Source of the DNA: Balanoglossus misakiensis | Taxonomy: Eukaryota > Animalia > Hemichordata | Direction of reading: 5' to 3' | DNA: 64,000 bases | NCBI GenBank assembly: GCA_040954595.2 | Contig: CM082580.2 | Location: forward strand, 982,783 to 1,046,782 | Shown here: piece by piece, positions 4,055 to 30,287 of the stretch | Numbering within the stretch: the stretch's first letter is position 1 | Layout: each line of letters starts with the position of its first letter | Program-made: the position numbers and the translations under genes | The notes under the pieces: model-generated | The model's database searches: none | Told to the model about the DNA's origin: nothing | What the model saw: the letters and a program-made list of their open reading frames with translations, nothing else

Positions 4055-6727
4055 ACTGCAAAATCTCAAAATTTGGTCGATTTTTGAAAAAAATCATGGT
4101 GAAAATCATCAAAAAATGACAAATTTTTGATTTTGCAAAATCTCAAAATTTCGTCGATTTTGAAAAAAATTATGGGTTCGTCGATTTTTGAAAAAAAACA
4201 TGGGTGAATTTTCGACTTTGCAAAATCTCAAAATTTCATCGATTTTGAAAAAAATCATGGGTTCGTTGATTTTTTAAAAAAACATGGGTGAATTTTCGAC
4301 TTTGCAAAATCTCAAAATTTCGTCGATTTGGAAAAAAAATCATGGGTTCGTTGATTTTTAAAAAAAAACATGGGTGAAAATCATCAAAAAATGACAAATT
4401 TTCGATTTTCCAAATCTCAAAAGTTCGCCGATTTTGAAAAAAAATCATGGGTTCGTCGATTGTTTAAAAAAAACATGGGTGAAAATCAACAAAATGACAA
4501 ATTTTCGACTGCAAAATCTCAAAATTTCGTCGATTTTTGAAAAAAAAATCATTGGCTGTAGCTCATGAAAATCATCAACAAATGTCAAATTTTCAACTTT
4601 GCGAAATCTCAAAATATCGTCGATTTTTGAAAAAAAAACCATGGGTTCGTCGATTTTTGAAAAAAAACATGGGTGAAAATCAACAAAATGACAAATTTTC
4701 GACTTTGCAAAATGTCAAAATTTCGTAGATTTTGAAAAAAATTATGGGTTCGTCGATTTTTGAAAAAAATCATGGGTGAAAATCTTCAAAAAATGACAAA
4801 TTTTCGACTGCAAAATCTCAAAATTTCGTCGATTTTCGAAAAAAAATAATGGGTGAAAATCATCAAAAAAATGACAAATTTTTGATTTTGCAAAATCTCA
4901 AAATTTCGTCGATTTTGAAAAAAAATCACGGGTTCGTCGATTTTTTAAAAAAACATGAGTGAAAACCATCAAAAAATGACAAATTTAAGACTGCAAAATC
5001 TTAAAATTTCGTCGACTTTTGAAAAAAAGCATGGGTTCGTTGATTTTTTAAAAAAACATGGGTGAAAATCATCAAAAATTTACAAATTTTCGACTGCAAA
5101 ATCTCAAAATTTCGTCGATTTTTGAAAAAAAAATCATGGGTGAAAATCCTCAAAAAAACGACAAATTTTTGATTTTGCAAAATTTCAAAATTTCGTCGAT
5201 TTTGAAAAAAAATCATGGGTTCGTTGATTTTTTAAAAAAACATGGGTGAAAATCATCAAAAAATGAAAAATTTTCGACTTTGCAAAATCTCAAAATTTCG
5301 TCGATTTTGAAAAAAATTATGGGTTCGTCGATTTTTGAAAAAAAATCATGGGTGAAAATCATCAAAAAATGACAAATTTTCGATTTTGCAAAATCTCAAA
5401 AGTTCGTCGATTTTGAAAAAAAATCATGGGTTCGTCGATTGTTTAAAAAAAACATGGGTGAAAATCAACAAAATGACAAATTTTCGACTGCAAAATCTCA
5501 AAATTTCGTCGATTTTTGAAAAAAAAATCATAGGCTATAGCTCATGAAAATCATCAACAAATGTCAAATTTTCAACTTTGCGAAATCTCAAAATATCGTC
5601 GATTTTTGAAAAAAAAAACGGGTGAAAATCATCAAAAAATGACAAATTTTCGACTTTGCAAAATCTCAAAATTTCGTCGATTTTGAAAAAAAATATGGGT
5701 TCGTCGATTTTTGAAAAAAATCATGGGTGAAAATCATCAAAAAATGACAAATTTTCGACTGCAAATCTCAAAATTTCGTCGATTTTTGAAAAAAAATTAT
5801 GGGTGAAAATCATCAAAAAAATGACAAATTTTTGATTTTGCAAAATCTCAAAAATCACGGGTTCGTCGATTTTGAAAAAAATCACGGGTTCGTCGATTTT
5901 TTAAAAAAACATGGGTGAAAACCATCAAAAAATGACAAATTTTCGACTGCAAAATCTCAAAATTTCGTCGATTTTTGAAAAAAAACATGCGTTCGTCGAT
6001 TTCTGAAAAAAAAAATTTTTGATTTTGCAAAATCTCAAAAATCACGGGTTCGTCGATTTTGAAAAAAATCACGGGTTCGTCGATTTTTTAAAAAAACATG
6101 GGTGAAAACCATCAAAAAATGACAAATTTTCGACTGCAAAATCTCAAAATTTCGTCGATTTTTGAAAAAAAACATGCGTTCGTCGATTTCTGAAAAAAAA
6201 AACATGGGTGAAAATCATCAAAAAATGACAAATTTTTGATTTTGCAAAATCTCAAAATTTCGTCGATTTTGAAAAAAAATCACGGGTTCGTCGATTTTTT
6301 AAAAAAACATGGGTGAAAACCATCAAAAAATGACAAATTTAAGACTGCAAAATCTCAAAATTTCGTCGACTTTTGAAAAAAAACATGGGTTCGTCGATTT
6401 TTGAAAAAAAAACATGGGTGAAAATCATCAAAAAATGAAACATTTTAGACTGCAAAATCTCAAAATTTCGTCGATTTTGAAAAAAATTATGGGTTCGTCG
6501 ATTTTTAAAAAAAAATCATGGGTGAAAATCATAAAAAAATGACAAATTTTCGAGTTTGCAAAATCTCAAAATTTCGTAGATTTTTGAAAAAAATCATGGG
6601 TGAAAATCATCAAAAAATGAAAAATTTTCGACTTTGCATAATCTCAAAATTTCGTCGATTTTGAAAAAAATCATTGGTTCGTCGATTTTTGAAAAAAAAA
6701 ACATCGGTGAAAATCACCAAAAAAAAA
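4055..6727. repeat. A-tract-rich satellite, segment 2
   Basis: Same modules as 1-918. Confidence 0.95.
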
Positions 6728-9700: not shown

Positions 9701-11022
9701 ATCATCAAAAAATGAAACATTTTAGACTGCAAAATCTCAAAATTTCGTCGATTTTGAAAAAAATTATGGGTTCGTCGATTTTTAAAAAAAAATCATGGGT
9801 GAAAATCATAAAAAAATGACAAATTTTCGAGTTTGCAAAATCTCAAAATTTCGTAGATTTTTGAAAAAAAATCATGGGTGAAAATCATCAAAAAATGAAA
9901 AATTTTCGACTTTGCATAATCTCAAAATTTCGTCGATTTTGAAAAAAATCATTGGTTCGTCGATTTTTGAAAAAAAAAACATCGGTGAAAATCACCAAAA
10001 AAAAATAGGTATTTGACTCAGAGTAAACAAGATTGTGTAATTGATACATGTCAGAACGAGATAGAGATATCACGCGCTAAGTTCATGTTTAAGAAATATT
10101 AAGATGACGTGTTCCTTTTATGACATAATACTTGACTAACGTATTAATAAGAGGTGGTGAAATTTGATATCACATTATTATCACCGGAGATCCGTGACGG
10201 GAGTCAACGAGCATGGATAGAGTCGTGTAATTCTTACGTGTGACCAGTAATAAACCACAACTATTTGTGTTACTCGGAAAACTTGTTGAAAGTCTCGTTA
10301 TGCCTCTCGTTAAGTTTACGATATGCCGGGTACCTCTCTCTGACTCTATGAATATGTTGGGTGGAGAAGGAGAGGGAGAGAATTTACACTCTCACCCTTC
10401 GGACGTGGCTGATTCCCCAAAGAAGCCCCGATGAGGTAAACGTCCGAAGGATGGCGGGCGTAACAAAACTACAGTGTTCGCAACATGACCTCAGGTCCGC
10501 CGCAGGTTTTGCATGTTACAGCAGAAAACGTCTCCGTCAGACCACTAAAAGTAATACCTTTAGGACATAAATTATTTATCTTGAAAGATATTGCTGTATG
10601 CAAATTTCATCTCCGGATTGCTATCGGCGAAACATACCGAGGCTGTCGTCGCTATAGTTGGGACCGACAGTCGAGACCCACATTGTATTGTAAGGAAAGT
10701 TTTAGACGCAACTTAATCAAAGCAGGTATAGTTAGCAGAGCAGATTAAGTTAGCAGAGGAGTGTCGGTATCGTCCACCGTAAACAGGTGTATTCCTATCG
10801 GATTTCAAGCGACAGTCAATTCCACTGGTCATCGATGTTTTTCTCCAAGGTGTTTGAAATACGTCTGTTCGATAGAGTCGTTGTTCCAAAATATGCACGG
10901 ATGCACGGAATGCGACCACATCTGGTTGTTGACAACAAACTAAGGTAGATTATGACTATAATCCCAACTGTCTCCTGTGTGACACACTCCTGTTGTGATT
11001 ATTGCTGGAATAGGCAATGTTT
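4466..11022 (+). repeat. Near-identical tandem duplication, period ~3277 bp (~2.26 kb satellite + ~1.0 kb non-satellite)
   Basis: Identical ORF translations offset by 3277-3278 (5001/8278, 6962/10240, 7483/10761). Junction near 7740-7748 with TGTTT microhomology. Confidence 0.9.
7745..10005. repeat. A-tract-rich satellite, segment 3 (duplicated copy)
   Basis: Copy of ~4470-6727. Confidence 0.95.
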
Positions 11023-12957
11023 TAATCTGCCTGCAAAGACTCGTGTGACAAAGATTGTCGGCCAGTCAACATCACCAACGATATTAACAATATAAAATAA
11101 ATAAAATTTCAACGATTCAACTTCTTTTCTAGCTTCCTATCTGGATAGTTTGTTTTTTTTACTCTAAAGATCGCCTTTCTTCCAGGCCACGTGGCAAGAG
11201 ACGTTATCAACTTCTACTATGATCGATGCGAGAGTACTATAGTATTCTCATATACACAGACAAAGGCCACCAAAATAAGAGAATCATTTGGTCAAATGGT
11301 AGAGGGCGCAAAAACAGATATTTCAAATGACAAAATTTTCCGATAAACGTGTTTAATCAAATCAAACTGTGCTCAATGGTATGCTTGCAAAAATTGAATA
11401 CAAATGAAACAAAACACAGCAACTGCCATGAACAAGAAGTTTATTCATGTCAAAATTCAATTTTTTTGAATCATTGATTTCAATTATCAGCTGAAAACTA
11501 AAATTAGATTGTCATCTTGAACAGTATAAAATCAGCGAGCCATTAGACATTAAGTACCCAGCATACTAAAATAAAACCATGTAAACATGCACAATTAGAT
11601 AATCAAATAATTTTTATTTATTCACCATGATGTTTTTAATGTATGTCAAGTCAAAGTACTTGAAGTTATGGACGATCAATTAAAATAGAAAACTGTAATT
11701 TTAATGGCTGGGTAATGTATCCAATTTCTGCCCAATATATGAAATTTCCGAGTTAGCAACTGAAGAATTCGTGGGGAAAATAGTTACGTGATGTGTAACA
11801 GAATTCACTTGGAAGTAAGGAGTTTTTGTAAAATCAACATGCATATTACAATTTATTTGTAAAAACTTGATTGGCAATGGAAAATTGGCGTTTAAATATA
11901 TAGTACTTCAAGATGAACAGATAAAATATAAGTTATTACAGATGTCATTTTACGACAACAAGGAATGGTAAATCGTTCTTTAATATCTTTAAAGATGCCA
12001 GGTCAAAGGTCACCTTTGCAAATTCAACCACTGGTACCATAGCCATTTCAAATGTAGCCAAAAGTGCGCCACCACTTTCTTCAAACATACTGAAACCATC
12101 TACAGGTTACCGTAGTCATATATCTCTTGGCATCCATGGCAGTTTAGCTAGTCATGAGCTGGCAAGGGGTGACCTGTAAGCTTTAAACTCTGGCTTCGGT
12201 AATGTCGACTCTGGCTCTGGCATATACTTGCAGGTCCATATGACCTTGGGGTGAACATGGTCATGAAGAAATAAATAGAATCTGTTTGGTGCATTGTCAA
12301 CTTCATTTTATAGTTTCAAAAAATTACAATATGATGAGTAATATTGTTGTTGTTTTCAAAGAGACTCACCACACACTTTAGTAAATCAATGACTTGAAAA
12401 AGTTTTGAGGACTATCATTTGTCAGAATCTCGGACCGCGAGGCACATACTACCTTAAATAGTTTCACTCGCAGCTTCTTGTGGGCAGTTTCTCCTTGCGT
12501 ACCTGTACAGACACACCAGGAGGCCGTTCCCGATGAACAACTCAACCCACATGAAAACATTCAAGCGTCTGGTCACACCCATTTCCGTCAAACAAGAACA
12601 TGAATGAAACTGCGGAGGAAGAGAACGGGAGAGTGCCCATTAACCCTGTAATGACCAATCATTTACTGGAACAAGGTTCAGGATGTACGATCACTGGAGT
12701 TGAAAATAAGGTCATGGATTTGAAAATTATTTTGAGTTATGAAATTGAAAATACATATTTTTCATTGTGGATTCTCCGACATAAATATTATCAAAAACAA
12801 TAAGGGTTGTCTTTTTAATTTATGACATATAACGCCATGAATCTAGCCCATTAATACAAAGGCAATACTAAAACACATTTCGGGTTAGCGTTATGACAAC
12901 TTGAAGAAAGTATGAATACAAACTTTCTAAAGTAATATTTTAAAGGTTGGCGTATTG
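10990..12957 (+). repeat. ~2-kb segmental duplication, copy 1 (copy 2 at 27786-29754)
   Basis: Collinear from CTGTTGTGATTATTGCTGGAATAGG to AAGGTTGGCGTATTG with scattered substitutions. Confidence 0.92.
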
Positions 12958-13070
12958 ATTACAGCTTGTTTGTTCTGCTATTAATGGAAATTCGGTTAGA
13001 GCCGTTTGAGGCAACTCTTATTCTGTCAAAGTTATGGCGTTAACTTATTCTGATAAAGTTATGTTAACGC

Positions 13071-13181
13071 TAATCTGATTAAAATCAGATGTAGGGAACG
13101 GCGACGTGTTTTTTATGCTGTCGCAGCATCAAAAAACTACGTCGCCATTCCCTAGGCCTACATCTGATTTCAAACAGATTG
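13071..13181. mobile_element. ~110-bp hairpin MITE (TAATCTG...CAGATTG), possibly AcademH-type
   Basis: Whole-length imperfect palindrome. Flanks TGTTAACGC / TGTTAACAT look like a degenerate 9-bp TSD. Related copy at 13441-13545. Confidence 0.55.
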
Positions 13182-13216
13182 TGTTAACATCAGGAACACT
13201 TTACATACATAAACTA

Positions 13217-13423
13217 CTGTAAAACACTTTATTTTAGCGAGTTGAAATTTTCACGATATCGAGAGAGGCTACTGTTTCGCGAGTATTAATTTTCGCGTTC
13301 TCTTATTTCATTCACTGCATCGTTATCTTCAAAAATAATTATGCGACCTCTTATTTTCATACCATTTTGGCTCTCACGTATCTCGCGAAAATGTATTGCT
13401 CGCGAAAATAACTTGTTTCACAG
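13217..13423. mobile_element. Tc1/mariner-type MITE
   Basis: TA|CTGTAAAACA...TGTTTCACAG|TA, ~25-bp imperfect TIR, internal TTTTCGCG / CGCGAAAA repeats. Confidence 0.7.
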
Positions 13424-13440
13424 TATATGCAAATATGCAG

Positions 13441-13545
13441 TAATCTGAATAAAATCAGATGTATGGTACGACGACGTCTTTTACTTATGTGGTACAGTAT
13501 TATTAGTATGCTGTCGTCATACCAACTGCGATTTTAGTCAGATTG
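13441..13545. mobile_element. Second hairpin MITE of the TAATCTG...CAGATTG family
   Basis: Starts TAATCTGAATAAAATCAGATGTA like 13071 and is palindromic. TSD unclear. Confidence 0.5.
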
Positions 13546-13856
13546 TATGTACGTCAACACTGATTGTTGTGGCTGCCTTAAATAGGTTTTCACTTTGCGC
13601 TACCTCTATACGTAACGCGTTCACTCAGTAGACCAAAATACACGGATGTCCAGCAGACAAGAGTTCCTGTTTATACCATGAGGCTAGAAGACTGTATTGT
13701 GTTATTATACAGTGGTGCAGTCTAGATTTTAGTGAGGGATTGAAGCGAATCCAATTGCTTGCTTGAAACTCGCCCATCGTGATTGTGCATTGATAAAATA
13801 CAATAATCATACCACAGAAACATAAATTCCAGCTGCGCCTATCAGCGAGATTGTCA

Positions 13857-14784
13857 TAGCCTGGAGACCAGGGCGTCGGGGAAAAGAAACGCCCGGGGAC
13901 AGTCTCTATTTACGAACAGAATTCTGTTCGTAGAACGACACGTGTGGTAAATCTTGCGTGTAAGCTAATTGGTCACTCAATGTTAACCACATGACATCGT
14001 CGCCTTCTAAATAAGGAAATAGAGGTGGAGTCATGTGTGAAATTCCCGCGATGGGATGTGGGAGTGGTTTTGAAAGTGTATGAATATTCATAACCAAGCT
14101 TTGTTAAAGGCACGTAAGGTGTAACTTTTGGGATAATTTTCATAATTTTTGTTTCAAACTGCACTACCATTAGTCCATGCAGATGGAGGTAGTGAACAAT
14201 ACACAAGCATTATAAACCCTAAGTATGAGTGCATATGCAAGTTTTAACCAGATAAATAATAAAGCTTTGCCGCAAGCGATTATGGCCGCCACCGTGGGAA
14301 AATGCAAGAAACAATGAAAATGTTGCATTTCCGGTTGTGAAACTTCATAAACAAAACATGATCTCATCCACTTGAGCTCATGGAAGTAAATGTACACCAC
14401 TGAGACATCAGATTTTCATTTTTCATTGCAATATTGCGCTTTTTTTAAAATTGCAGGAATTTTCGTTTTTCTTTAATTTTTGGCCATTTTGTCATAAATA
14501 AGTGTTGAGCTTGATATATTATCATGAAATAGCATTTAATAGACATAATTAAAAGCATATATGAGATTATTTAAAACTTTAATTTTTTATCCAGTTACAG
14601 CTTACGTGCCTTTAATTATATCATCCAACCACTGGCGCCCGTCAACATTTGATAGATCACTCGTTATCCATTTGTTACTAAGCGACCTCGATCGTTGCCA
14701 AGACTACTATCTTTCAGCTCAGCAGGACTTGCTCGACTGTCCCCGAGCGTTGTATTTTAGATCGACGCCCTGGTCTCCCGGCTA
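13857..14784. mobile_element. Non-autonomous AcademH-type element
   Basis: TIR TAGCCTGGAGACCAGGGCGTCG / CGACGCCCTGGTCTCCCGGCTA (~50 bp imperfect). Perfect 9-bp TSD AGATTGTCA at 13848-13856 and 14785-14793. TAG...CTA termini. Confidence 0.85.
14108..14611. mobile_element. Kolobok-type MITE (504 bp) nested in the AcademH-type element
   Basis: TTAA|AGGCACGTAAGGTGTAACT ... AGTTACAGCTTACGTGCCT|TTAA. TTAA TSD with purine-purine start. Confidence 0.8.
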
Positions 14785-15278
14785 AGATTGTCAATATATA
14801 CGCCGCATGTTGCCAGCCAGGGCCCCGACTGACATTCCCTCTGAATATACACACCCCTCTATTGAAAATGGAACATTCCTGCAAGCAAAGCATGTTGTAC
14901 TTGCTTACATCAGCTGTAGTGACTTGTGTAGACCCCCAGCGCGCGGCCTCTACTGTCTGTATATGGTCTGTCACAGTCCCCGGGAGTAACTGTCATGACA
15001 GAAATCGGTTTGTCAACGGCAAAACGGAGATAAGGTGTTTTTTCCGAATATAGAATATTCAATTCTGTTTGATTCGGTCATGCCCAAAGTGTGCGTAGCT
15101 GTCGTCCTCTGACAACGCTCGCTCATATTTCATGCGGAGAACTTAAGTAGGTTCAAGCCAAGTTTTAATAGTTGGGCTAAGGTCTTCCCTGATAAGTGTT
15201 GAAATGTTTGGGGTGTTACTGTCCGGGCTGTAACGACTTGGGTCGTGGAAAATGGGGGCTGAAACGACTGGGGCCGAA

Positions 15279-15334
15279 AGGGTCAGAGTGCCGGAACGAC
15301 CTGTTTAAACATGTCGTTCCAGCACTATGACCCT
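15279..15334. repeat. 56-bp imperfect palindrome after short GGGCYGAAACGAC-like repeats (MITE-end remnant)
   Basis: AGGGTCAGAGTGCCGGAACGACCTGTTT/AAACATGTCGTTCCAGCACTATGACCCT. Confidence 0.55.
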
Positions 15335-16323
15335 AAAGTGTTACCTAAGATAGTGTCCAGCGTCTAGCCGTTATTGAAATTATAGACCCTGCAGCGAGAC
15401 TGAGCATGATTTGTTGTTGTCATGAAACTCATCTCGTACTCCAGTCACTTTCATACAAAACGGCTATGAGTGTCCAATGGTCTTTGTTGAGACTGTTTGA
15501 CATTGAATGGCATTGACCTCGCGGGAGGATATCCTTCATGAATACAATGCAGGATATAATTTACATTGGCAAAGGGCTTTGAGGTGCACCAAATTAGTAA
15601 TTTAGACACACCTTAATTATTACATGCCACCCCAAACTTTTTTAAAGCAAGAAACAAAATTGCAGTGCTTTTCCAATGACGCTTTTTAAAATGTAGAATC
15701 AGATTGTTTTCTTGTCGCTCAGGTGTCCAAAATAAATATAGCTGTGATCAATTCCTACTTAAAGCAAACAAAAGTAAATTGAGTTGAATGGGCACGTCCG
15801 GCCCATATTTGACCCATTTCACATTTTTTCTTTCTTAGGCTGCATTCACAAACACCTCTGGAGGGGGGGGGGAATTCATCTTTTACCGCTAATTTTCACA
15901 TGCCCCCCCCCCCTTTCACAACCCGAAATATTTTGAAATCCCCCTTCCGAACTGCCAAAATTTTGAAATCCCCCCATTTTCTTTCACAGAGCAAAACTCA
16001 TAACTCTGCTCAAGCGCTCCCATGAAAAGAATTTGAAACTGATGTTTCCCCTCATCAGTGGGTATTAAAACTGAACATTGTTTTTATTTTTTAAGTATTT
16101 TGTATGATTATAATTAAAAAATATACAACTTAGCTAAAATGCTCAGATGAGTTAATCAGATTTTCAAAGTCCACCTAAAAGATCATTTAATCTTTCCAGG
16201 GTGCGGTTTATGTTGGAGATAGTATCAGTTAGGCTATTTCTCAGAAAATCAATGAACAATCTGCGGACACCCCGAATAATATGTTACCACAACGCTAGCC
16301 AGGAAGCACATGGGACATTTCAC

Positions 16324-16590
16324 AATGAGGCAGTGAACACTGGGGGGACCAGACTGACACGTTAACCAATCAGGGAGCTGTATGGTGAATAAATACATAT
16401 TAATAAGACCTAACCTACAAGGTCCTGCATAATGAGGCAGTGAACACTGGAGGACCAGACCTACACATTAACCAATCAGGGAGCTGTAAAGTGAATAATG
16501 CATTGTAATAAGACCTAACCTACAAGGTCTGGTGAATAATACATAGTAATAAGACCTAACACATAAGGTCCCTCCAATCAGCGAGCCGCA
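16324..16590 (+). repeat. ~107-bp tandem repeat (two units plus partial)
   Basis: AATGAGGCAGTGAACACTGG...AACCAATCAGGGAGCTGTA...TAATAAGACCTAACCTACAAGGTC repeated. Confidence 0.75.
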
Positions 16591-16675
16591 AGTGGACCTT
16601 AGAGAAGTGGATAAACCAATCAGAACATGTAATACGTGTGCATAGGACCTGTAATGTAGGTCATTTTGAAACAGG

Positions 16676-18689
16676 ACTAGTTCACCATGACCAACCACAT
16701 GACCCAGGAAATCGATCTGCTCATAACCCACATAACACTTAGTTGGTCTCGCTGTTAACTTTGCCTTTCGTAGTCTGCTCATCAAATCTGTAATTGTCTT
16801 GATATGTTCTTCCCATGATGCAGTGTGGATCAGTATGTGATCGATATAGTTGTCTACGTTCTTCATATCTCTTAACAATCTTCTCATAATTCTGCTAAAA
16901 GTCGCAGCACTATTTACAAGTCCGAAAGGCATTTTGATAAATTGGTATAGCCCATCATGCGTGATAAATGCCGTCAATTGTTTAGAATTATCAGTCAACG
17001 GGACTTGCCAATATTCTTTGCTGAGATCTACTTTAGTGAAATAGTGATCCTTGGATAACTTAGCAAAAAGCAAAAAGCTCACTCAGGTCTGGTGTAGGCT
17101 CTGCATCAAACACTGTTATGCGATTGAGCTTTCTCATGTCAACACAACAACGATTGGACCCATCAGATTTCTTCACCATTACCAGTGGAACAGCATATGG
17201 ACTCTCTGAAGGTTCAGCTACTCCCATCTTAATCATCGTTTTGACTTCATCTTTCACTGCTTCACGGAGTGCATGAGGGATGGGGTATGGCCTACTGCAT
17301 ACTGGTGTTGGATCCATCAACTTGATGTCATGGAAACCCAGGTTGGTGTTACCACGAATATCAGTTAACATATCTTTGTAATTGATCAGCAACCTCCTCA
17401 CCACTTGCTTCTGTATGTCTGACAAGTTGTCACATACATTCACATCTGCAGCAAATTCTTTCTGCTTGAATGCAGGAACCCGCAGTAAGTCATCGTTTAC
17501 TTTAACCCCTGTGTTCTCTTGTACTTCTGAAGATTCATAACTCTGCTCATCTATCACAGATACACACACAATCTCAAGAAGTCCAGCTGATACTTCATCT
17601 AGCTGATCAGTTCTTCGATAGTACCTCTTCAACAGGTTGGCATGGAATGTTTTCACCCTATGACCAAAGTCAATCTTGTAATCCATATTGCTCGCTTTCT
17701 CCACCACTGGAAAAGGACCCTTCCAGTGCATAAGTAGTTTATTATGGTCAGTAGGTAGTAGCAATAACACCTCGTCACCTTTGTTGAACTTCCTCCATTT
17801 GGCCTTTCTATTGTAGTAGGACTTGTATTTGCCTTGTGATATCTTCAGTTCTTGTCTTGCTAAATCGCATGCCTTCTTTAATTTCTTTTGAAGATCAAGG
17901 ATGTATTGATAAGTCGTTTTGGTTTCTGGTTCACTGATCTCTCCAGTCCATAGTTCTTTCAAGATAGCCATTGGACCACGCACACTCCTCCCATAAAGTA
18001 ACTCAAACGGAGAGAATCCTGTGCTCGATTGAGGCGTTTCTCTGTAGGCAAATAGTAAAGCATTCAGATAACGATCCCAATATGTTGGACGTTCCTCACA
18101 CATCTTCCTGAGCATGAGTTTCAATGTACCATTGAACCGTTCCACTAGACCATTGAATGCTGGGTGGTATGGGGTGGTAGTCATCTGCTTTATAGACAAA
18201 AGCCGGCTGACCTCACGCATCACATCTGATGTAAATTGAGTTCCTTGATCTGTCAGAATTTCACGTGGACACCCCACTCTTGAGTAGATGTCCAGGAGCG
18301 CCTCTGCAACAGTCTTGGTATCAATGTTAGTCAATGCAACAGCCTCCGGATAGCGTGTTGCATAATCAACAACAGTAAGTATGTACCTATTCTTGCGTTC
18401 AGTGCATGGATGAATAGGGCCAACCAGGTCTACTGCAATACGTAGGAAAGGGATATCTATTAGTGGCATACTTCCAAGTGGTACCTTGGTCACCCGTCCC
18501 TTTGGTTGTGTCCGTTGACATGAATCACAGGACTGACAGTAACGGGAAACATCTGATGTTAGCCCAGGCCAAACGAAGTTGCTGAGGATCTTGTCTGTGG
18601 TCTTGTGAGTTCCGTGGTGACCACCCAGCACTGATTCATGGGCTAGTCTCATCACCTGGTTACGATACACTCTGGGAACCACCACCTGT
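16676..18689 (-). pseudogene. pol: Gmr1-like pol, integrase + reverse transcriptase part
   Basis: Zinc-binding AHES..GHHG..CQSCDSC, core DLVGP / TDQG / VERFNGTLK, WKGPF, then RT DLSKEYWQ / MPFGL. YIDD is mutated to YIDH. A 7-bp tandem duplication at ~17063-17078 causes a frameshift. Ends after FLGHVVG. Confidence 0.92.
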
Positions 18690-19538
18690 CACTACAGCTT
18701 GAACGACGCCACCTATGGGCAGTATTTCCGTGGCAGCCTATGAAGCTCATGAATATTTAATTAGACACAGTAATGGCGTTCGCGATCGAACACAGCTGTC
18801 GATGCACAGCATAATTCGGTGAGTAATATTGCTTTATTCCAAGTTTTGTTTAGTAAAATTAGCAAGATGTCAGAGACAATATGAAATAAAGTTGCGATTC
18901 TGCTGTGTTATTTATGTGTATCAGCCAAATAACTTGAACATTTTGATCACCCGCTGACAGTCCCTGGCCGTTGCTATAGCAGAAGCCGTCCTAAGCAACC
19001 ATAAACAAACACTAAAAATTACAACGATTCAGCTTCACAGAATTGTTTTTTTCAATTTGAAAACCATACGAATTTAGTCTTTTATACGTAAACATAGGAT
19101 TCCATGTTTAAAATGCTGCTACAAGCAATATGACGAAATCATACCAAGCGAAAATATACGACCCTGTGTGTTCCTTGGCAGCAGCACGGGTTACATTGAT
19201 TGTAATGGCGGCGCTTCGAATTTTCGGCGACATGGTGATATTGTTCATAGAATTGACAGAAAATAAGACCGTAACTGAAAAATCAGAAACCAATAGTTTG
19301 TGCTAAAATATATTCTTGATATAATTCGCTGGAAATTCGAGGGTGAAAACGAAATAAGAAAAAAATGAATGGGCGAGATTGTTATGGTAAGGTTACCCAC
19401 ATTCTTTCTATGTCACCTTTGACCTCAATTTCTGGAGGAAGTATAATGAGCAGGTGTTTTGTTTTTGCTTCCCTCGGATAGATAATTATTGTAAAGATAT
19501 TTCTCTTGTTCACCCTTTTCAGGTATAGATTTAGAGCC

Positions 19539-22500
19539 ATGTGGGGCAAACTATTCAACAGGAGTAGCGCACTTCTTAAAAGTTTGTCTATTGTTATGCC
19601 GAATAGAAAAGGGAAAAGTTACTTCAACATAGGCCAGTGGGCAAAGGACCAAAAGATAGCGAGACAGGTAGCTGAAGAGAAGTGTTTACAACAACTATAT
19701 CAGGAGAAATTGAAGACTAGATCTTTGTCTGGGAGCGTGGCCAACAACCTATTGGTAGTTAGAACAAAGAGAGGACAGACTAAACACAGGTTTAACTTAG
19801 GAGAGTGGTGTAGACAGAGAAAGAGAAAGAGAGATGAGGAAGAAAGCATAATTCAGGATAAGTTGAATAAGTTGAGTGCAGCTAGGAGACTAGTAAAAAG
19901 ATCCTCAACCCAGCTAGCTAGACTAGAGAAGAAGAACAGTAAGATTTGTGAGATCTTAGCTACAAAGAATAATAAGAGAAAGGTAAGCTAGATCAGATAA
20001 ATAGACTTAGTCATAATTTTAAAAATCTCAGATTTGTATAAATCCTCTTCAAATTTTAGCCCAAATTCGCTTTTTGAACTTCATGTCACATGATCCTGTG
20101 TAAACAATGATAACAAAATGGGTTCAGCTTTGATGCAAAACATCTAGGTTTTCCAACAAACTATGTATATTTTTTAGGATTTTTATTGCAGAAGTTGTCA
20201 GAAAAATACAGGCTACACGTGTGTATTTCTTATCAAGGACATTTAAATTAATGATTAACTTGTAAGAAGATTTTATTTTATATATAATGATTATATTCTA
20301 ATTAGTATATATTTATCACACACTTAATCTTTCAGATTCCTGTTGATGTTGTTAATGTGAAACGCTCTAAATGGGTCCACAAGAACACTGAAGTATGTGC
20401 AGATAATAGTGAATCTTTGAAGCTGTCGCGACGTCAACAGTATGAACGTAGGTGTGAAACCTTATCAGCAGCCATAAATATTCATGTAGCAACTACAGAT
20501 GTAAGCCCAGCCAAAGGTATAAATAAACCGAATGTACTACATCCACCAAAAGCAGCACTTGATGGTTTGTGGTATACTCTTGTTAATTCTGCCACTCCTG
20601 ACCAAATGAAAACATTCTTCAGAACCTCTCCCCAAATCAGTAAAAAAGTAATGCCATCAGTATTTGATAAATACATCAGTAAATTTGAGAAAAGTGAGAA
20701 CAATTTGGTGAGGAGTGTCAGAACTATGTATGAGGGCGGAGTACTATCCAAACGAAAATATAACTGTCTGAGGCAGAGTGAACTTCAGATGTTCTCCAAC
20801 TTGAAACATCCTAGGAAAGCAGTAGAAATTCATTCTGGCTGTAGAATACCAAGACTGCTCCCATACACAAAAGTTGTACAGTATGTAAGTAACCTTGACA
20901 TTGGAAATCTTGAGCCAATTATATCATCTGAAGGCAAACAAGTCGGCTTAAAAAGAAACCCTGAGGAGTTGCTTATTAAGATTGCCAGTTTATATTTAAA
21001 TATGGGGGAAACACAGCCTGATATTCTTAACTGGTTCGGTAAACAGGAGGGCTCATTTCAAATCAGTATAGGTGCTGACGGGGCTCCGTTTGGCAAACAT
21101 GGACAGGCCACTGCATGGCTAGTTAGTTTCTTGAATGTGACCCACCGTGTTGCTAGCCCAGACCACAATTTTCTCCTATTAGGGGCAAACATAAAAGAGG
21201 ATGACCCCATAATGATTGAATTTGCAATTGCATTGTCAAAAGACCTTGAGTGTATTGAGAAACGTAAATATAAAGTTGGCAGTCTTGATGTAACTTTTCA
21301 GGTGTCACTTTTACCCTTTGATCAGAAGGGATTGGCCAGTGTGTCTGGAGAACTAAGCAATGCAGCAAAGTATTTCAGCTCATTTGCTAACGTTCCAAAA
21401 ATGATATTGATTGTATTGGAGCAGAAATTGGCCCAGGTCAGAAGTGGGATGAATGGAAATATCAGAAAAGAATTAAAGATGCAGAAGCTGTTGAAAAGTT
21501 GAAGTCAACTAAGAAAATTAAAACTGGAAAGCCCAAAACAGTGCGACCCAAAATCACACAATTTATAGCCAGTCTGAGGTCAAGACAGGAATTTGTACCA
21601 CCGTTGGGTAGATTTATTGATTGTGCCAAGGCTGAGCCATTGCATTTAAAGAACAATGCATGGCAATACTACTTCCAACGATTACTGATTGACGCAGTTG
21701 CCCACACTTCAGAAAAGGGTCGTGAAAATGGAGTTAAAATTGAGAATCTACCTAACGAGTCATATCTGTACAAATTCCTGTCTGCCCTAAAATATCAAGT
21801 AAAAGCTGGAAAGTTGTATAATAAGATTGTAAAATACTTCAATGAAAATAGTGTCAAGTCAAATGCCAACATTAATGTGGTTTATCGCTTCACTGGTGAG
21901 GAGTCTCGCAAACTTGCTTGGCATTTCATAGGATTGGTATTAGCATTGAGAAGCGATACAGACAGACCAAAGCGTCGGGCTCAATTAGCTCTCTACACAT
22001 ATACTGGTATCTTGCTTAGAGATATCACTTTGTTATTCTCACGATTCAACATAAATGAGGGAGATTTGCTTGTACTTAGGCATAAGTGTCGGTGGTACTT
22101 TAATCTACATTCCCTGTTTCTGAATGTCAATAATACTGTGTGGCACATTGGTTATGTAGTCCCAAAACACACCACTAGTATCTATAAGCAATTCAGTCTG
22201 GGATTAGGCCTAAACACAATGGAAGGCAGAGAGGCAAAGCATCTACGCCTGCTAGAATTCAGTGAAAATTCTACACCTCAAAATAGGTGGGCCCTCATAT
22301 TTCGACACGAATATGTGATGCTTTTTTGGCTGAGGAACAAAAGTCCAAAAGCTGACAACTATAGAAATGCAAATGTAGGTCAATTTGAGCTTAAAGAAAA
22401 AGAAAAATACATTCCCAGTCGATATTATGAGAATGCAGGCTACTGTATGTGTGGCAATTTAAAAAAATGAAACAATGACTGCCTGTGAAATATGTGTTGA

Positions 22501-22576
22501 CCCAATTATGGATGACATAAAAAAAGCAGCTGTCACTGGTAAAATATCAAATAAACTCAAGAAACTTATGCTGTGA
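19539..22576 (+). pseudogene. RAG1/Transib-like DDE transposase, two coding exons (19539-19982, 20336-22576), two 1-bp frameshifts
   Basis: Phase-0 GT-AG intron 19983-20335 joins the ORFs in frame. Motifs LKLSRRQQYERR, LSKRKY, IGADG (D, 21077), IKEDD, PFDQK (D, 21320), EPLH, RFTGEESRKL, GLNTMEGREAKH (E, 22231). Frameshifts near 21394 and in the A-run near 22465. C-terminal CxC...CxxC; stop at 22574-22576. Confidence 0.8.
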
Positions 22577-23428
22577 ACAATGATTGAATTTGAAACAGTG
22601 GATTGTGTCACTGTGTGCTACTTTAGAATTAAAGGATAACTATAGTATTAATTACATTACAGAATTATAAAGACTCATCTGTAGTTGAGAGCTGCATTTA
22701 ATAAAAATGGAGATCACAAATCACATGAATTCACACTTTTTGAACTGGAGATGATATGTTTCTTATGGGATTTTGTATATGTGTGCATGTATGGGGACAG
22801 GGAAATTGAAACTTATCTTACCACTATTAAGTATTGTGAATAAACCCTTAATCGTATAGTGATTGCAGTGCTTTGCAAAATTAAAATGTATGACATACAT
22901 AAGCTTGATAGAAAAGTTTTACATTTTTCTTGAGGAGTTGTTTATTCTGCACCTGCACGAAATTTTAATGAATTTGTGAAAAAATAAAGAATTAAGTCTC
23001 ATCAAATTCTTGATATTTATAAATTTTGTCATGGAATTAATTGTAAATATTAATTAAATTTAGACCAGAAATCCTGGTTAACTGTTAGATGAGCAGTTTT
23101 GATTGACTTATCAATGTTGATTGTAGGTAACATACATTTTTTTCTGAAACTAATGAAAAATCTATGTTACAATAATGATGGAAAAAAAGAATTTTACAGT
23201 TTAGGAAATTTTGTAAACATTATCTGTTCATTTGTATTGAATGTAGATAAATAAAGACAAGTGATGAATTTTTGAGTCTTCTAATTTTCCTTTTTTTATT
23301 TGAATATATGTCAATTGTGAGAGGACTGTCTTGACAGACTGATACATCTACACTGAACAACATGTGCCACAGATCAGGAAAAAAATGTTCCTCAGATGGG
23401 TTGAATCAGTGTGAAAAATCAATAGGGT

Positions 23429-24079
23429 TCAGTTCTCTGGATGTAATGGAATTCCATGTTTGTTCCAGGCACCAAAGCTGAATCTAACAGCAACAGTCTC
23501 CCTGTTGATAAAATATTTCACAACACAGGGCTTCTCAGGTGTGAATATAACAGCTACCCTCTTTCCACGGACTTTCTTCTCTAGGATATTCTCTGTATGC
23601 TGACCGATAGCGCCCTCGTAGCAATAACCTTTCCGTATCACATACAATAGCTTCAAGGAACTTGTGAAGGTCAAGGTTATGATAGCCCTGGAGGTCTTCT
23701 CGTCGATACCAAAACCGGTCCGAGTAGCAAACTGATGAAAAACATCAAATACTTCCCTCGGCATTTGTCGTGTAAAGCTGCTTTGCCATGGTGACCTTAA
23801 CGACGGGGATGTTGACAGCCGAGCGTAGAAGGTCTTCTGCCAGTAGGTCATATCACGCTGAAACATGGGAAATACGGCGACGTCACGCCAACGAATCTTG
23901 TCCTTTGACAGCTTGTCGTTTCGAAATATGGCCCTTGTTGTCACATCCTCAAGTTCATCAAAGAGTGGGTGTATATACAGATTGTCCGACACGCATTTTT
24001 TACGTTTAAGCACAGATTTTGCCTCTCGCAATTTGCGTTTTATAACTTTCTCGGCATCGATCAACACGGGCGCCGCCAT
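23429..24079 (-). CDS. Intact 216-aa protein of unknown function carried by the transposon, convergent with the transposase
   Basis: Single ORF with strong start context CAAGATGGCGGCG, 84 bp inside the right end. Protein-like composition. AT-rich spacer (22577-23428) separates the two convergent genes. Confidence 0.7.
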   Translation of the reverse strand: MAAPVLIDAEKVIKRKLREAKSVLKRKKCVSDNLYIHPLFDELEDVTTRAIFRNDKLSKDKIRWRDVAVFPMFQRDMTYWQKTFYARLSTSPSLRSPWQSSFTRQMPREVFDVFHQFATRTGFGIDEKTSRAIITLTFTSSLKLLYVIRKGYCYEGAIGQHTENILEKKVRGKRVAVIFTPEKPCVVKYFINRETVAVRFSFGAWNKHGIPLHPEN

Positions 24080-24163
24080 CTTGGCAATGCGTTGCTATGG
24101 TGAACATGGGAGCTCGCGCTTCGCGGAATACTGCCCAACATAGCTCTAGTATTTCCCGCAGTG

Positions 24164-25977
24164 TGTAACAGCTTTTCACCAAATTGGACCATTGGCGAAT
24201 TGAACTCTCTGTACAGGATCCCATCTTTCATGATGAACTTCAACCTACCTCCATTCCTAGTCACTTTCTCGTCACCCAAAATTGCCTTCTCACGTAGTTT
24301 GTCAAGAGTGGAGTCTTCTTCTTGAGCTTGTTGAAGCTTCCCTGGCATCACCACTTCACCAACAGCTTTAGGTACTTTAAGCTCTCTGATTGGTTTTTGG
24401 TTGGCTATCTTCTGGGCTCTGGTCTCCACAGCATTTGCTAAACCTGGTACCTGTCCAACAGTTGTACACAGTCTACATGTCGGCAATGGTTCCTGCCATG
24501 TAGTATCAGGATTCGAAGGGTCAGATACACCATCAATGTTGCCCAGTATTAAATCATACACATGGTTCATCATGCACAGTGCAGTAACATCACCAACAAA
24601 GTAAGGGGTATCAACTTTTATAGAGGCTACAGGTACTCTTCTAATAGTCCCATCTATCAGAACACACGTCCTGTACTCACCAGTCAGCTGATTACTTGAC
24701 ACCAGACTTCTTCGAACTACCACGCTACTACACCCACTATCACGCAAAACGCTAACCAGCTTACCATCGAGCAATCCCTTCATTACCGGCATCTTCTTCA
24801 CTCCATGGGCACTACAAGCAGCACTCATCACTGGGAGCTTATGACCACATGGTAACACGAACTCCTTATTCAGTGTTGCATCTGTTTTATCTATTTCCAT
24901 TGCTACCACCATACATGCATAACCAGTGTCTAGTCCCCTGGGCTGTTGACGGTTGCCCCAATGTGTACATTCTTGTTTAGGTGGATAGTTTCTATCTTCT
25001 TCAGTTAACAATACCGCCGTCTTATGCATCTTTGGCTTACTTCTACAATCTTTGGCCATATGACCACCTTTACCACATACGAAGCACGTACCTTTAAAAA
25101 CATGGGAACCATTGGTTTTGTTATTAAACTTATTTACTTGATTTGGATATACAGCAGGCTTGGTATTTGCTGTCGGCTGGCTCCTTGGATTATTCTTGGC
25201 ATTACTTGGCAGTTTCCACCACCCTCGGGCATCTAAGTATTTTGAGGCAGTAGATACCATCTCTTGGACATTCTCTGGCCGTCGCTCTCTAATGAACATT
25301 GCCATGTCTCTGGAACATACTCCAATAAACTGCTCTCGAAGTAACAGATCTGTAAGCCCATTGTACGTCTTTGGAGTACCAGCCAGTTCTACCCATCTGC
25401 CCAAATAGTCACCAATACGGTCCATAAACTTTTGAGCACTTTCATCATAATGTGGCATACACGAACGGAACTTGTCATGAAAACTCTCCTCACTTAACTG
25501 GTAAGCCCTCAATAACTCTGGTTTCAATTCATCATAATTATTTGCAGACGCTGCAGGCATTTGGTTGTATGTGGATACATCCTTACCTTGTAACAATATG
25601 CACTGAGATTCACCCCCAGTCATCTTTTTCCCACTTCTGAGCAGTGGCGTAGCGCTGAAAACGTTGAAGGTACGCATCCATATCATCAACATCCTCACGA
25701 AAACCCTGTAGTCTCGGAGCACGCGCTTTGGCCAAATTATTTTCAGTAACCTGCTGTTCTGTATTTTCCCCTTTCAATTTTAATTCTTGTAAGTGAATTT
25801 GCATTTTCAGTATCTCTCTCTCATGTTCCTCGCGCCGCCTATTATCTTCTCTCTGCTCCTCTCTCTCAGTAGCCCTAAGATCCCTCTGTCTAATTTGTTC
25901 CTCTCTAACATAATCTTTTAAAGCAGTCCCTTCCAACCCAAATTTTCTCCCTATCTTAGATATTCTTTCTGCATATA
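24164..25977 (-). pseudogene. gag: Gmr1-like gag-protease
   Basis: GRKFGLEGTALKDYVRE coiled coil, MDAYLQRFQRYA, SCAN-like EQFI...FIRERRP, CFVCGKGGHMAKDC, LRDSGCS. Frameshifts near 25595-25615; start codon apparently mutated. Confidence 0.88.
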
Positions 25978-26255
25978 TGCTTTGCTGTATCGCGATTTAC
26001 AACCCCCAGTTTGACAACCCCTAGCAGTACAGGGCATTCAGCACAAGTCAACACAGCCAAACGCACGACGCAAACCAACACGGCCCATATTATATAGCAG
26101 GAAACCACAAGCGCACATACAGTAACAGTACCAGCCTACAGACCCAGCACCGTCTTCACAATTTGCAGAATCTCTACCTAGCAAAACCATGGTCTCCACT
26201 ATATGGCAACAATTTATGATAGTATACAAACAAATGCACAACAAAACGATAAAAC

Positions 26256-26272
26256 TCCCGGACGAGCCCCCA
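26256..26272 (-). promoter_or_regulatory. Primer-binding site, tRNA-Pro type
   Basis: TGGGGGCTCGTCCGGGA on the minus strand, 2 nt after the LTR-terminal CA. Confidence 0.9.
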
Positions 26273-26274
26273 AA

Positions 26275-27571
26275 TGTCAGAGGTGGAGGGCACCCCTCTG
26301 ATTCCAGGATAAATATTGAGCAGCTCTCAGTGCCAAGGAGTAAACATCCGTGGATAAGGTATGGGGAGAAACTACACAAACCAGTGCGGATACAATAATA
26401 CAGTTGATTTAATTTAAATCAATTAAATAATATAAAGATAATACTAGGAATATAATTTTTGTGCACAATATGCACAATATCAAATGTCTCTGTCCTAACC
26501 AATTTAGCAGGTACAGGTATGCTGATACAATTGGTCATACAATACAATGGGTTACTTAATATATTACATAAATGAATATATTCACAATATCACTATAGTT
26601 TATTGTCTATTGCATATTGTCTAAACAATGGTAAGTGTCACTTAGCTGTATATAACATTCATAGTAAACAATCATGATTCAACCACAATATGGGATGGAG
26701 TCCTGTATAGATGAACGATGTAGCGACGATCCACATTACACATACAATCTGTGATACACCATGTTTTCTACCACTTGTAGTCCTCCAGTAGTCAAGTAAA
26801 CACACTGAAGACTGACTTGTTAGATGCAAGTCTTGGGTTAAATGGCTGAATGAAAAATCAACAAACATTGACTGAAATGTCCACCTTAGCAACTGTTCAC
26901 AAATGAATACTGACGTTTCTCAATAATAATTATCAGAAATTTGGACTAGTTAAAGCGTCATGATTACATGTGATATCATGGAAAATTATGCTTTAACTAT
27001 GACCGTCCTATTACTTACAAATTGTCGAATTTGACATAAATATCCATAAAATATAAATTTAAGTTATAGTAAATAAATAAACAAATACATTACTTACACG
27101 AGAATTCTTCACCACACTTCATGCTCAGCAATACCGGGTCTATAGGATGGTTCCACAGAACTCTGCTTGGAGCAATTTCCAGCCACACCACATACGACCA
27201 TGCCAGCCACGCCAATCGCCCGACCACACCGGTTTGCACTGAATAAGCACAATTCTGCTTTCTAGAAGTACTGAATTTACTTCCACTCGAATTGCAGAAA
27301 CAGTGGTCCTGAGAGCACTAATGCGCGCTACAGCATTACATGGACACAGCAAGGTATGGTGCAATATTTCCCCTAGTATTTCTACTCACTGAGCAGGGAG
27401 ACCCGACTTGTTGCTCCCTTCAAGACCTAAATTGAAGTGTGCTCTCTTACTACACGAAACTTAGCTAACGAAGCCCTATTCATTAACATGACAATACACG
27501 GTGTCACTACACCTGAAATTATGCGGGCACCTGGGTTTCCACTGACTCCAGTACTACCTAATTATATGACA
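26275..27571 (-). repeat. 5' LTR of the Gmr1-like element (~1.3 kb)
   Basis: TGTCA...TGACA ends, adjacent to the PBS. The outer boundary is inferred because there is no second LTR to compare. Confidence 0.65.
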
Positions 27572-27785
27572 AGTTGGGACCGACAGTCGAGACCCATACA
27601 GCATTACAATCAACAAATAGTAAAAAAAATAAAAAAGTAAACAAAAAACAGGAAAACATTTTAAAAATACAAATAAAATTATGAAACTACTAAAAAAACA
27701 AAACAAAAACAAAAACAACACAAAAACACAAAACAACAAGCGAGGTCAATAAAGATTAACGCTTACAAAGATAGAAAAAGTAAGA

Positions 27786-29754
27786 CTGTTGTGATTATTG
27801 CTGGAATAGGCAATGTTTTAATCTACCTGCAAATACTGGTGTGACAAAGATTGTCGGCCAGTCAACATCACCAACGATATTAACAATATAAAAATAAATA
27901 AAATTTCAACGATTCAACTTCTTTTCTAGCTTCCTATCTGGATAGTTTGTTTTATTTTACTCTAAAGATCACCTTTCTTCTAGGCCACGTGGCAAGAGAC
28001 GTTTTCAACTTCTACTATCATCGATGCGAGAGTACTATAGTATTCTCATATACACAGACAAAGGCCACCAAAATAAGAGAATCATTTGGTCAAATGGTAG
28101 AGGGCGCAAAAACAGATATTTCAAATGACAAAATTTTCCGATAAACGTGTTTAATCAAATCAAACTGTGCTCAATGGTATTCTTGCAAAAATTGAATACA
28201 CATGAAACAAAATACAGCAACTGCCATGAACAACAAGTTTATTCATGACAAAATTCAATTTTTTTAATCAGTGATTTCCATTATCAGCTGAAAACTAAAA
28301 TTAGATTGTCATCTTGAACAGTATAAAATCAGCGAGCAATTAGACATTAAGTACCCAGCATACTAAAATAAAACCATGTAAACATGCACAATTAGATAAT
28401 CAAAGATTTTTTATTTATTCACCATGATGTTTTTAATTTATGTCAAATCAAAGTACTTGAAGTTATGGAAGATCAATTAAAATAGAAAACTGTAATTTTA
28501 ATGGCTCGGTAATGTATCCAATTTCTGCCCAATATATGAAATTTCCGAGTCAGCAACTGAAGAATTCGTGGGGAAAATATTTACGTGATGTGTAACAGAA
28601 TTCACTTGGAAGTAAGGAGTTTTTGTAAAATCAACATGCATATTACAATTTATTTGTAAAAACTTGATTGGCAATGGAAAATTGGCGTTTAAATATATAG
28701 TACTTCAAGATGAACAGATAAAATATAAGTTATTACAGATGTCATTTTACGACAACAAGGAATGTTCAATCGTTCTTTAATATCTTTAATGATACCAGGT
28801 CAAAGGTCACCTTTGCAAATTCAACCACTGGTACCATAGCCATTTCAAATGTAGCCAAAAGTGCGCCACCACTTTCTTCAAACATACTGAAACCATCTAC
28901 AGGTTACTGTAGTCCTATATCTCTTGGCATCCATGGCAGTTTAGCTAGACATGAGCTGGCAAGGGGTGACCTGCAAGCTTTGAACTCTGGCTTCGGTAAT
29001 GTCGACTCTGGCTCTGGCATATACTTGCAGGTCCATATGACCTTGGGGTGAACATGGTCATGAAGAAATAAATAGAATCTGTTTGGTACATTGTCAACTT
29101 CATTTTAAACTTTCAAAAAAATAACAATATGGTGAGTAATGTTTTTGTTGTTTTCAAAGAGACTCACCATACACTTTAGTAAATCAAAGACTTGAAAAAG
29201 TTTTGAGGACTATCATTTGTCTGAATCTCGGACCGCGAGGCACATACTACCTTAAATAGTTTCACTCGCAGCTTCTTGTGGGCAGTTTCTCCTTGCGTAC
29301 CTGTACAGACACACCAGGAGACCGATCCCGATGAACAACGACACCCACATGAAAACATTCAAGCGTCTGGTCACACCCATTTCCGTCAAACAAGAACATG
29401 AATGAAACTGCGGAGGAAGAGAACGGGAGAGTGCCCATTAACCCTGTAATGGCCAATCATTTACTGGCACAAGGTTCAGGATGTACGATCACTGGAGTTG
29501 AAAATAAGGTCATGGATTTGAAAATCATTTTGAGTTATGAAATTGAAATACATATTTTTCATTGTGGATTCTCCGACATAAATATTATCAAAATCAATAA
29601 GGGTTGGCTTTTTAATTTATGACATATAACGCCATGAATCTAGCCCATTAATACAAAGGCAATACTTAAACACATTTCGGGGTAGCGTTATGACAACTTG
29701 AAGAAAGTATGAATACAAACTTTCTAAAGTAATATTTTAAAGGTTGGCGTATTG
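27786..29754 (+). repeat. ~2-kb segmental duplication, copy 2
   Basis: Matches 10990-12957. Confidence 0.92.
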
Positions 29755-30287
29755 CTTAGCATAATCATTTTTCCGTTTGCTGTGACATTTGTCTCCCTGT
29801 GAGAGTTTAAGTAAATGTAGAGTCACGCAAATTAGGCAACATCAATATCCCATACGTAATTCAGTGTGTTTTGTTCGCATTTTTGGTTTTCATTTTGAAA
29901 ATGAACAAAGGACTTTCCTATCATTGACCAACACTCGTATGAATACATCCAAATTACCCAACTTTAATTTTCCTTAAAGAATTGGTCAGCTCTGCGAATA
30001 TATTTCACCTGACCACTTCCTTTGCTAAGGAAGAGTGTTGTTTATGTAATAATATTTTTATAATATTTATAACTTATGTAGCACATTAAATCTCAACGTG
30101 CTTTAAGTTGTCCCATGGTCATTTGAGCTAGGATGTTGGACCTAAATATTCCATTCAACTCCCTGGGGAGCAAACAACATCTCACCATCATTAGAAATGC
30201 CAAATTACAGTGCTTTTGGCCACGTATTAACCTGGGGATTTACAGTTAACTTTAAATACACACGCATATGCATTTAATCCCCATGTG

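Follow-up and report, generated by a model that had tools for sequence, protein, structure and literature searches.

Transposons related to the RAG recombinase have so far been studied in two forms, namely Transib, with one gene and mostly 23/23-like ends, and RAGL, with a RAG2 partner, and the origin of the two-subunit design of RAG and of its spacer-length rules is an open question. As described in PMC1131882, most Transib families carry the same heptamer-23-nonamer arrangement at both ends. Duplications of 3 bp have been reported for some Transib elements, and the length of the target site duplication (TSD) is described as labile (10.64898/2026.08.26.747230). In the sources on the RAGL/RAG system (PMC8289069, PMC7204232, PMC10462144), RAG, ProtoRAG and HzTransib are stated to cut DNA by nick and hairpin (PMC10462144), and the spacer of ProtoRAG is stated to set a distance (PMC8289069). 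For the CMCT clade, all seven lineages are said to share a C(2)C and an H(3-4)H motif (PMC12730594). CAC...GTG termini with a 3-bp duplication are given there as the ground for filing an element as EnSpm (PMC12730594), and elsewhere as a hallmark of Chapaev, with TWA as the target of Chapaev3 (PMC4079192).

Here we describe a DNA transposon lying in the window, the whole 64-kb stretch of DNA that was analysed. The element has defined boundaries, a target duplication and two convergent genes; the D-D-E residues of its transposase are invariant among relatives, and a second block stands at a fixed distance from the tip, symmetrically at both ends. We assign a probability of about 0.65 to the reading that we are dealing with a young DNA transposon of the cut-and-paste type, which makes a 3-bp duplication and has ends in two parts, and that its transposase, predicted to resemble the RAG1/Transib core, likely grips each end twice.

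The insertion and its transposase

The element covers 18690..24163 on the forward strand (5,474 bp) and has CAC...GTG termini. Contigs of run X1 span both junctions with zero differences; X1 is possibly the source of the window. The element is bordered on both sides by TGT (18687..18689 and 24164..24166), a duplication that was absent from the earlier note on this DNA and is added here. When lengths of 2-6 bp were scanned at the flanks, a match was found at 3 bp only, which rules out a 5-bp duplication. The insertion splits a Gypsy LTR retrotransposon that lies on the reverse strand at 10990..29758. The insertion point falls between its gag-protease and integrase frames (gag-pro, 24061-25773; integrase, 17060-18688; RT, 16468-17082; all on the reverse strand), and 3 bp is one of the duplication lengths that leave both flanking Gypsy frames in register. 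Because the element is nested in a Gypsy whose LTR-like direct repeats (10990-12961 and 27786-29758; 1.97 kb) are 97.0% identical, it is young; the repeat identity limits how old the insertion can be, provided that no copying of the composite in trans took place. No second copy of the element was found within the 64-kb window.

Relatives were drawn from metagenomes as the best 80 of 170 confirmed loci, grouped into 47 families. Both ends were available for 13 loci, and the flanks could be tested in 12. A 3-bp duplication was found in five of the 12 (5 of 9 families), and none of 4-9 bp was found; six of the remaining loci are without a duplication and one has a 2-bp match. The loci without a duplication are probably collapsed assemblies. 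Together, the duplications of the window element and its relatives read TGT, TAG, ATT, AGC, ATT and ATA, whereas both Transib and RAGL are characterised by 5-bp duplications. The ATA duplication belongs to a complete 8.5-kb element (L081, 4241-12782) situated inside a 294-bp satellite. This was the one relative found in prokaryote genomes; its contig is assigned to a bacterial MAG but is probably animal host DNA in the bin, and no relative was found among viral contigs.

The transposase gene is predicted to be split into two exons on the forward strand. Exon 1 (19539..19982, with a start at 19539 or 19596) would encode an F-x-I/L-G-x-W motif and a coiled coil, and it matches the N-terminus of a spliced relative from Pocillopora (P0277; E 0.005). 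The F-x-I/L-G-x-W motif occurs twice within 19596-19982 and once in relatives. Following a predicted intron (19983-20335), exon 2 (20336..22576) carries NBD-like helices, a DDE core (D at 21077-79, D at 21320-22 and E at 22231-33) and a C-terminal four-Cys motif. The reading frame breaks at two A runs (21397-21401 and 22461-22467), in the run contigs as well as in the window. In one related contig of run X1 the alignment breaks off at 21850, where a sequence like a splice donor suggests an extra intron.

The closest relative of this transposase is an uncharacterized protein of Ptychodera flava, 71-74% identical to it, which is also its sister with support 1.0 in a FastTree tree of 63 rows (rows with fewer than 350 aligned residues were excluded; the tree has no known outgroup and its deep nodes are weak). 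Corals, amphioxus and the nemertean Lineus are the sources of the other named relatives, and all named members are called 'uncharacterized' or 'hypothetical'. With E limited to 0.001, a profile search with the transposase collected 3,121 clusters, and recognition of the lineage gives a likely function for 'uncharacterized' proteins that number in the thousands in the genomes of corals, nemerteans, acorn worms and amphioxus. Four proteins (P0125, P0126, P0137 and P0163; one from amphioxus) form a divergent subgroup that has SAP and C2H2 domains at the C-terminus together with a long insertion.

Sequence searches did not connect these proteins to a known family. No Pfam transposase family matched any of 34 + 37 proteins, the window transposase had neither a Pfam match nor a PDB sequence match, and at E up to 10 profiles A2 and A6 retrieved no RAG1 or HzTransib chain from PDB sequences. 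The AlphaFold model available for the Ptychodera flava relative (P0001; pLDDT 89.8) found its best structural match in the RAGL/RAG1 system (PDB 5zdz, 6b40), with a Foldseek E of 3e-12 and a Z of 22.6 against the RAG1 core (rmsd 3.7 A, 465 aligned, 9% identity). The model scored lower against BbRAG1L (Z 19.9), HzTransib (PDB 6pqx; Z 19.7, rmsd 4.1, 423 aligned), the P element (12.5) and Hermes (6.4). Identity to RAGL/RAG1 proteins is 9-12%, with no sequence match, and the window transposase is predicted, from the model of this close relative, to fold like the RAG1 core. No structure of a Chapaev or EnSpm transposase is known to have been solved, so a fold search cannot place the family among the CMCT lineages. 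Since a RAG1-like fold is probably common to all CMCT enzymes, these Z scores do not tell whether RAG1 is closer than Chapaev or EnSpm.

Spaced about 81-85 and 283-306 aa apart, three acidic residues (D, D and E), for which the fold suggests a catalytic role, are invariant in 60 of 60 sequences. The C(2)C zinc motif was sought as a CxxC anywhere from the second D to the E and was found in 0 of the 60, a difference from Transib as well. An H(3-4)H before the E is present in 17/60, and its second His is invariant. At the C-terminus, CxC...CxxC is found in 46/60, and the CTT1 motif of RAGL (Cx2Cx3GHx4C) in 0/60. Residues of the P0001 model from 4-6 on align to RAG1 from 400-406 (6oem/6oen); the two alignments that reach the NBD-like region have an rmsd of 6.4-7.2 A, and the model is without the first part of this region. 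GGRPR, described as the motif reading the nonamer in RAG1 (PMC12711392), precedes the basic helix in 1 of 21 aligned sequences, representing one family (L057). A profile of the transposase N-terminus found no PDB sequence match at E up to 10.

In comparison with the CMCT clade, the lineage shows the CA..TG termini, a duplication within the 2-5-bp range and a DDE domain with a long insertion that separates the second D from the E, but it retains H(3-4)H only in part and has no C(2)C after the second D. It shares CAC...GTG termini and a 3-bp duplication with Chapaev3, whose TWA target is matched by 0 of the 6 duplications. Judged by their descriptions, Chapaev3 and EnSpm/CACTA are further set apart from it by its conserved convergent second gene (ORF2) and by the absence of a Pfam match. 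It is apparently an unnamed CMCT lineage in which the C(2)C zinc motif has been lost, and it likely represents a side branch of the RAG/Transib group not described before. No description of it was found in the literature searched.

Repbase or Dfam may already list this lineage as EnSpm, Chapaev3 or Transib, which would make the window copy simply a further member, though we hold this doubtful. Its termini and duplication would fit a filing as EnSpm (PMC12730594) or Chapaev (PMC4079192), the family is large and occurs in well-studied coral, amphioxus and acorn-worm genomes, and homologues of ORF2 already carry a Pfam number, PF26709. Against such a listing stand the failure of any Pfam transposase family to match, the 'uncharacterized' and 'hypothetical' names of its members, the absence from all 60 sequences of a motif said to be common to every CMCT lineage, the lack of TWA among the duplications and the silence of the literature searched.

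The second gene and a possible mechanism

ORF2 (23429..24079, reverse strand) is intact, encodes 216 aa, is convergent with the transposase and starts 84 bp from the right end. Homologues were found in the same place and orientation in 9 of 9 delimited relatives tested. With a profile seeded by these nine relatives and the window, ORF2 was detected in 26 of the 32 loci whose downstream sequence reaches 1.5 kb or more, representing 13 of 18 families, two of the 26 being weak fragments. The homologues share a conserved segment, W...basic...P-W, and those aligned all terminate at one common motif. Searching with the ORF2 sequence alone gave no match. A profile search returned 29 proteins, 28 of which carry PF26709, a recent Pfam number for which no mention was found in the literature searched; the 21 aligned homologues all fall under local Pfam thresholds. 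An hhalign probability of 0.1 rules out that ORF2 is a piece of the transposase.

The model of ORF2 is an alpha/beta fold of six helices and one sheet (pLDDT 75.5, pTM 0.66) and not a propeller. None of the fold searches gave a significant match: Foldseek against the PDB had a best E of 0.015, the best hit in a viral library (E 0.002) covered part of the chain, and the wide VIA comparison reached a best Z of 4.2, its weak TBP-like rows (RNase H3 N-domain, Z 3.5) being discounted. The absence of a fold match is no evidence of a new fold. The arrangement of a transposase and a convergent second gene between terminal inverted repeats (TIRs) is shared with RAGL (PMC7204232), in contrast to the one-gene Transib. 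However, the second gene of RAGL encodes a RAG2-like six-bladed kelch propeller with a PHD, and that of the present lineage encodes this small alpha/beta protein. The closeness to ProtoRAG suggested in the earlier note is not supported, in view of this second gene, which is not RAG2-like, and of the 3-bp duplication. ORF2 might be a helper required for transposition, either as a partner subunit or as a DNA-binding accessory.

On the preferred reading, the catalytic core would engage the CAC tip while the N-terminal helical domain would bind the second block, about 22-37 bp inside, and the spacer would likely act only as a ruler that sets the distance. By analogy with RAG1 and Transib, cleavage at CAC would proceed through a nick and a hairpin, and strand transfer would take place with a 3-nt stagger. 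Reading of the distal block by the NBD-like basic helical region, also proposed by analogy, is the weakest step of this scheme.

The distal block could instead be read by ORF2, in the manner of the accessory proteins of two-gene transposons. CACTA elements possess an accessory DNA-binding protein of this kind, TnpA. The Myb/SANT protein of Harbinger is another (PMC12730594). ORF2 is basic (pI 9.97; homologue median 9.44, n=21), possesses the conserved W...basic...P-W segment and accompanies the transposase in most of the families scored, all of which would suit such a role. We nevertheless regard it as rather unlikely, since ORF2 has no convincing match to a known DNA-binding fold and the transposase has a basic helical N-terminal region of its own, placed like the NBD of RAG1. 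Binding of the distal block by the transposase is kept as the preferred scheme.

Two-part ends in the window and in relatives

The earlier note had proposed that the ends consist of two separate parts, and all of the strings and coordinates that it gave, from the left end at 18690 to the right end at 24163, were reproduced. On the left (forward strand), a putatively cleavage-proximal tip (offsets 1-9, 18690..18698) is succeeded by a spacer (offsets 10-26, 18699..18715) and by the distal block TGGGCAGTATT (offsets 27-37, 18716..18726). On the right (reverse strand), the tip (24155..24163), the spacer (24138..24154) and the same 11-mer (24127..24137) take up identical offsets. An ungapped comparison of left with right gave identities of 6/8 at offsets 1-8, 4/18 at 9-26, 11/11 at 27-37 and 3/13 at 38-50, confirming the modest tip similarity, the unrelated spacers and the identical 11-mers that had been claimed. 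In the 64-kb window, the 11-mer occurs at these two sites alone.

A palindrome had also been pointed out at the right end, and part of the distal block is indeed repeated there in inverted orientation as AGTATTTCC, at 24148..24156 (forward strand); a 9-nt inverted match of this kind arose in 3 of 4,000 shuffles. However, folding of the right end showed no significant excess over shuffles (z -1.6), and inverted matches in relatives are 6 nt or shorter, so that a functional hairpin is not supported. Within AGTATTTCC, GGAAAT at offsets 8-13 recurs in relatives L017 and L044.

Ends of relatives were called on nt 1-10 alone, which yielded 68 raw and 45 distinct candidate ends from 24 of the 47 families. 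A wrong-orientation control produced 9 full-length matches, so about 9 of the 68 raw candidates are expected to be false, and because the families are related the ends are not independent. A second conserved block was found at 22-33 on both ends, at positions outside those used for selection. GGC at 29-31 is present in 13/45 distinct ends, compared with a mean of 0.69 at other positions, and was seen in just 8/24 families; both window ends have it. When one end per family was used, the best 11-nt window started at 21-23 with an information of 3.92, compared with 1.43 +/- 0.21 and a maximum of 2.12 in shifted controls (n=300). Among 19 strict ends (those whose tip pattern is perfect, from 12 families, with left and right taken as separate ends), AA occupies 24-25 in 14 and 35-36 in none, the latter figure being 2/45 for relaxed ends. 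Both window ends are missing the AA at 24-25 and have T at 35-36, and on the 22-33 matrix of the relatives the left end scored poorly, with 0.1 (rank 4 of 49 offsets), and the right end reached 4.2 (rank 2).

Left-right identity in 10 relatives was 0.99 over nt 1-10, 0.55 over 17-22, 0.76 over 27-33 and 0.25 over 38-60, and the best left-right shift of nt 22-38 was 0 in 10 of 12 pairs, the exceptions being L081 (+1 nt) and L021 (+10). A fixed and symmetric distance from tip to block with a variable spacer, as earlier proposed, thus holds across relatives and also in a sister element described below. Alignment of related families, the check suggested for this claim, placed the block at a fixed position but did not find the spacer to be always variable, as TIRs of 31-34 bp are near-continuous in L049 (31/31), L079, L030 and L017. 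Nor is the 11-mer itself a conserved signal: relatives match it at no more than 8/11 bases (1/45 ends) and at five or fewer in 35/45, indicating that it is family-specific and that the GGC core alone recurs. Since the 11-mer is family-specific, near-continuous relatives exist and most Transib families are alike at both ends (PMC1131882), the contention that such ends stand instead of ordinary TIRs was overstated, and symmetric spacing is no departure from known elements. The left arms of L003, L011, L030 and L049 contain a portion of the right arm in inverted orientation, with some of ORF2 in it.

The ends resemble those of Transib in having a CAC tip and two conserved blocks that flank a variable spacer and are as a rule alike at the two ends (PMC1131882, PMC9435367). 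They differ in that Transib has CACAATG, a 23-nt spacer and an A-rich nonamer with A at 35-36, whereas the present lineage has a CACG(C/G)YGG-like tip, its block at 22-33 and GGC at 29-31, with the position 35-36 almost devoid of AA. CAC at both tips and a distal block are likewise shared with RAGL/ProtoRAG, and the relatives' AA at 24-25 falls at the place of the two essential nonamer A's of the 12-spacer RSS (PMC1131882), but the present ends are symmetric. Judging from sequence features, the ends would work like those of Transib and RAG, while membership in RAGL or canonical Transib fails on several features. Taken alone, two-part symmetric ends are ordinary, being a variant of the known Transib design.

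A sister element was recognised on a different contig of the same sample (X1 record 8; 80% likeness). It aligns to 24025-24138 and the C-terminus of ORF2, with 20 differences and 2 gaps over 114 nt, and then continues for 25 nt to a GTG end, giving a spacer of equal length and a register identical to that of the window. Comparison by hand with the right end of the window gave 8/9 in the tip and 5/16 at offsets 10-25; in this contig the 11-mer is not directly readable, and another GTG occurs 9 nt beyond the point where the alignment stops. X1 records 3, 4 and 8 point to at least 2 or 3 further related families in the same sample.

These data bear on whether the ends are an ordinary continuous TIR of 35-40 bp that has decayed in the window copy, an outcome that the earlier note had itself named as contrary to its proposal. 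The near-continuous TIRs of the four relatives lend this idea some substance, and a continuous repeat may be an ancestral or alternative state of the lineage. For the window copy it fits poorly: the host LTR-like repeats are only 3% different and yet the spacers agree at 4/18, which is no more than background identity, ORF2 is intact and the duplication perfect, and permutation under uniform decay matched the window ends in 428 of 200,000 trials (P about 0.002). In addition, L002 shares the shape of the window ends (0/10 at 12-21 and 14/17 at 22-38), and the sister element has another spacer in the same register. Given the age bound, the uniform-decay test and the sister element, we consider decay of a continuous TIR very improbable, and ends built in two parts are retained as our reading. 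The idea that the two 11-mers face each other by chance and that the ends do not belong together, as the 6/8 terminal match and the single copy in the window might suggest, is already refuted by the shuffles (an exact in-register run of at least 11 within nt 9-50 arose in 3 of 200,000), the exact 3-bp duplication, the clean interruption of the Gypsy frame and the repetition of the end pattern and gene pair in many relatives.

The lineage and the surroundings of the element

The interest of the locus lies in its lineage, which combines a predicted RAG1-like fold without the zinc motif, a 3-bp duplication, relatives' ends that are symmetric and in a 12 register, and a conserved second gene that is not RAG2. 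Next to Transib and RAGL, it may serve as a third natural experiment: most strict ends of relatives place the A pair as a 12-spacer signal would, the partner gene is a different one, a C2H2 zinc site is lacking and the stagger is 3 bp. As intact copies exist (for example L017, L049 and L081), rules of end spacing, dependence on the partner and the geometry of the target stagger are directly testable. A more far-reaching version would see here an undescribed, widespread sister of RAG1/Transib in marine invertebrates that arrived independently at the RAG layout, with a zinc-site-free transposase, an obligate non-kelch partner in the role of RAG2, symmetric '12/12' ends and a 3-bp TSD; we give this version little credence at present.

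Several further repeats surround the element in the window. A second Gypsy internal region at 35471-44652 (gag, 38434-40068; pol, 35946-38573) contains a head-to-tail unit of 4,591 bp at 99.98% identity, which is either a recent duplication or an assembly artefact. At 4470-11025, a 3.28-kb unit is doubled at 99.8% within an AT-rich satellite having periods of 28, 78 and 105 bp. A 192-bp satellite array of at least 7 kb occupies 56950-64000, with a short copy at 34279-34924. The word depth of 18400-24500, flanks included, is near 1,500 in X1, compared with 110-260 for contigs of related elements (runs X1 and X2), and possible sources of this high depth are an amplified region or an enriched library.
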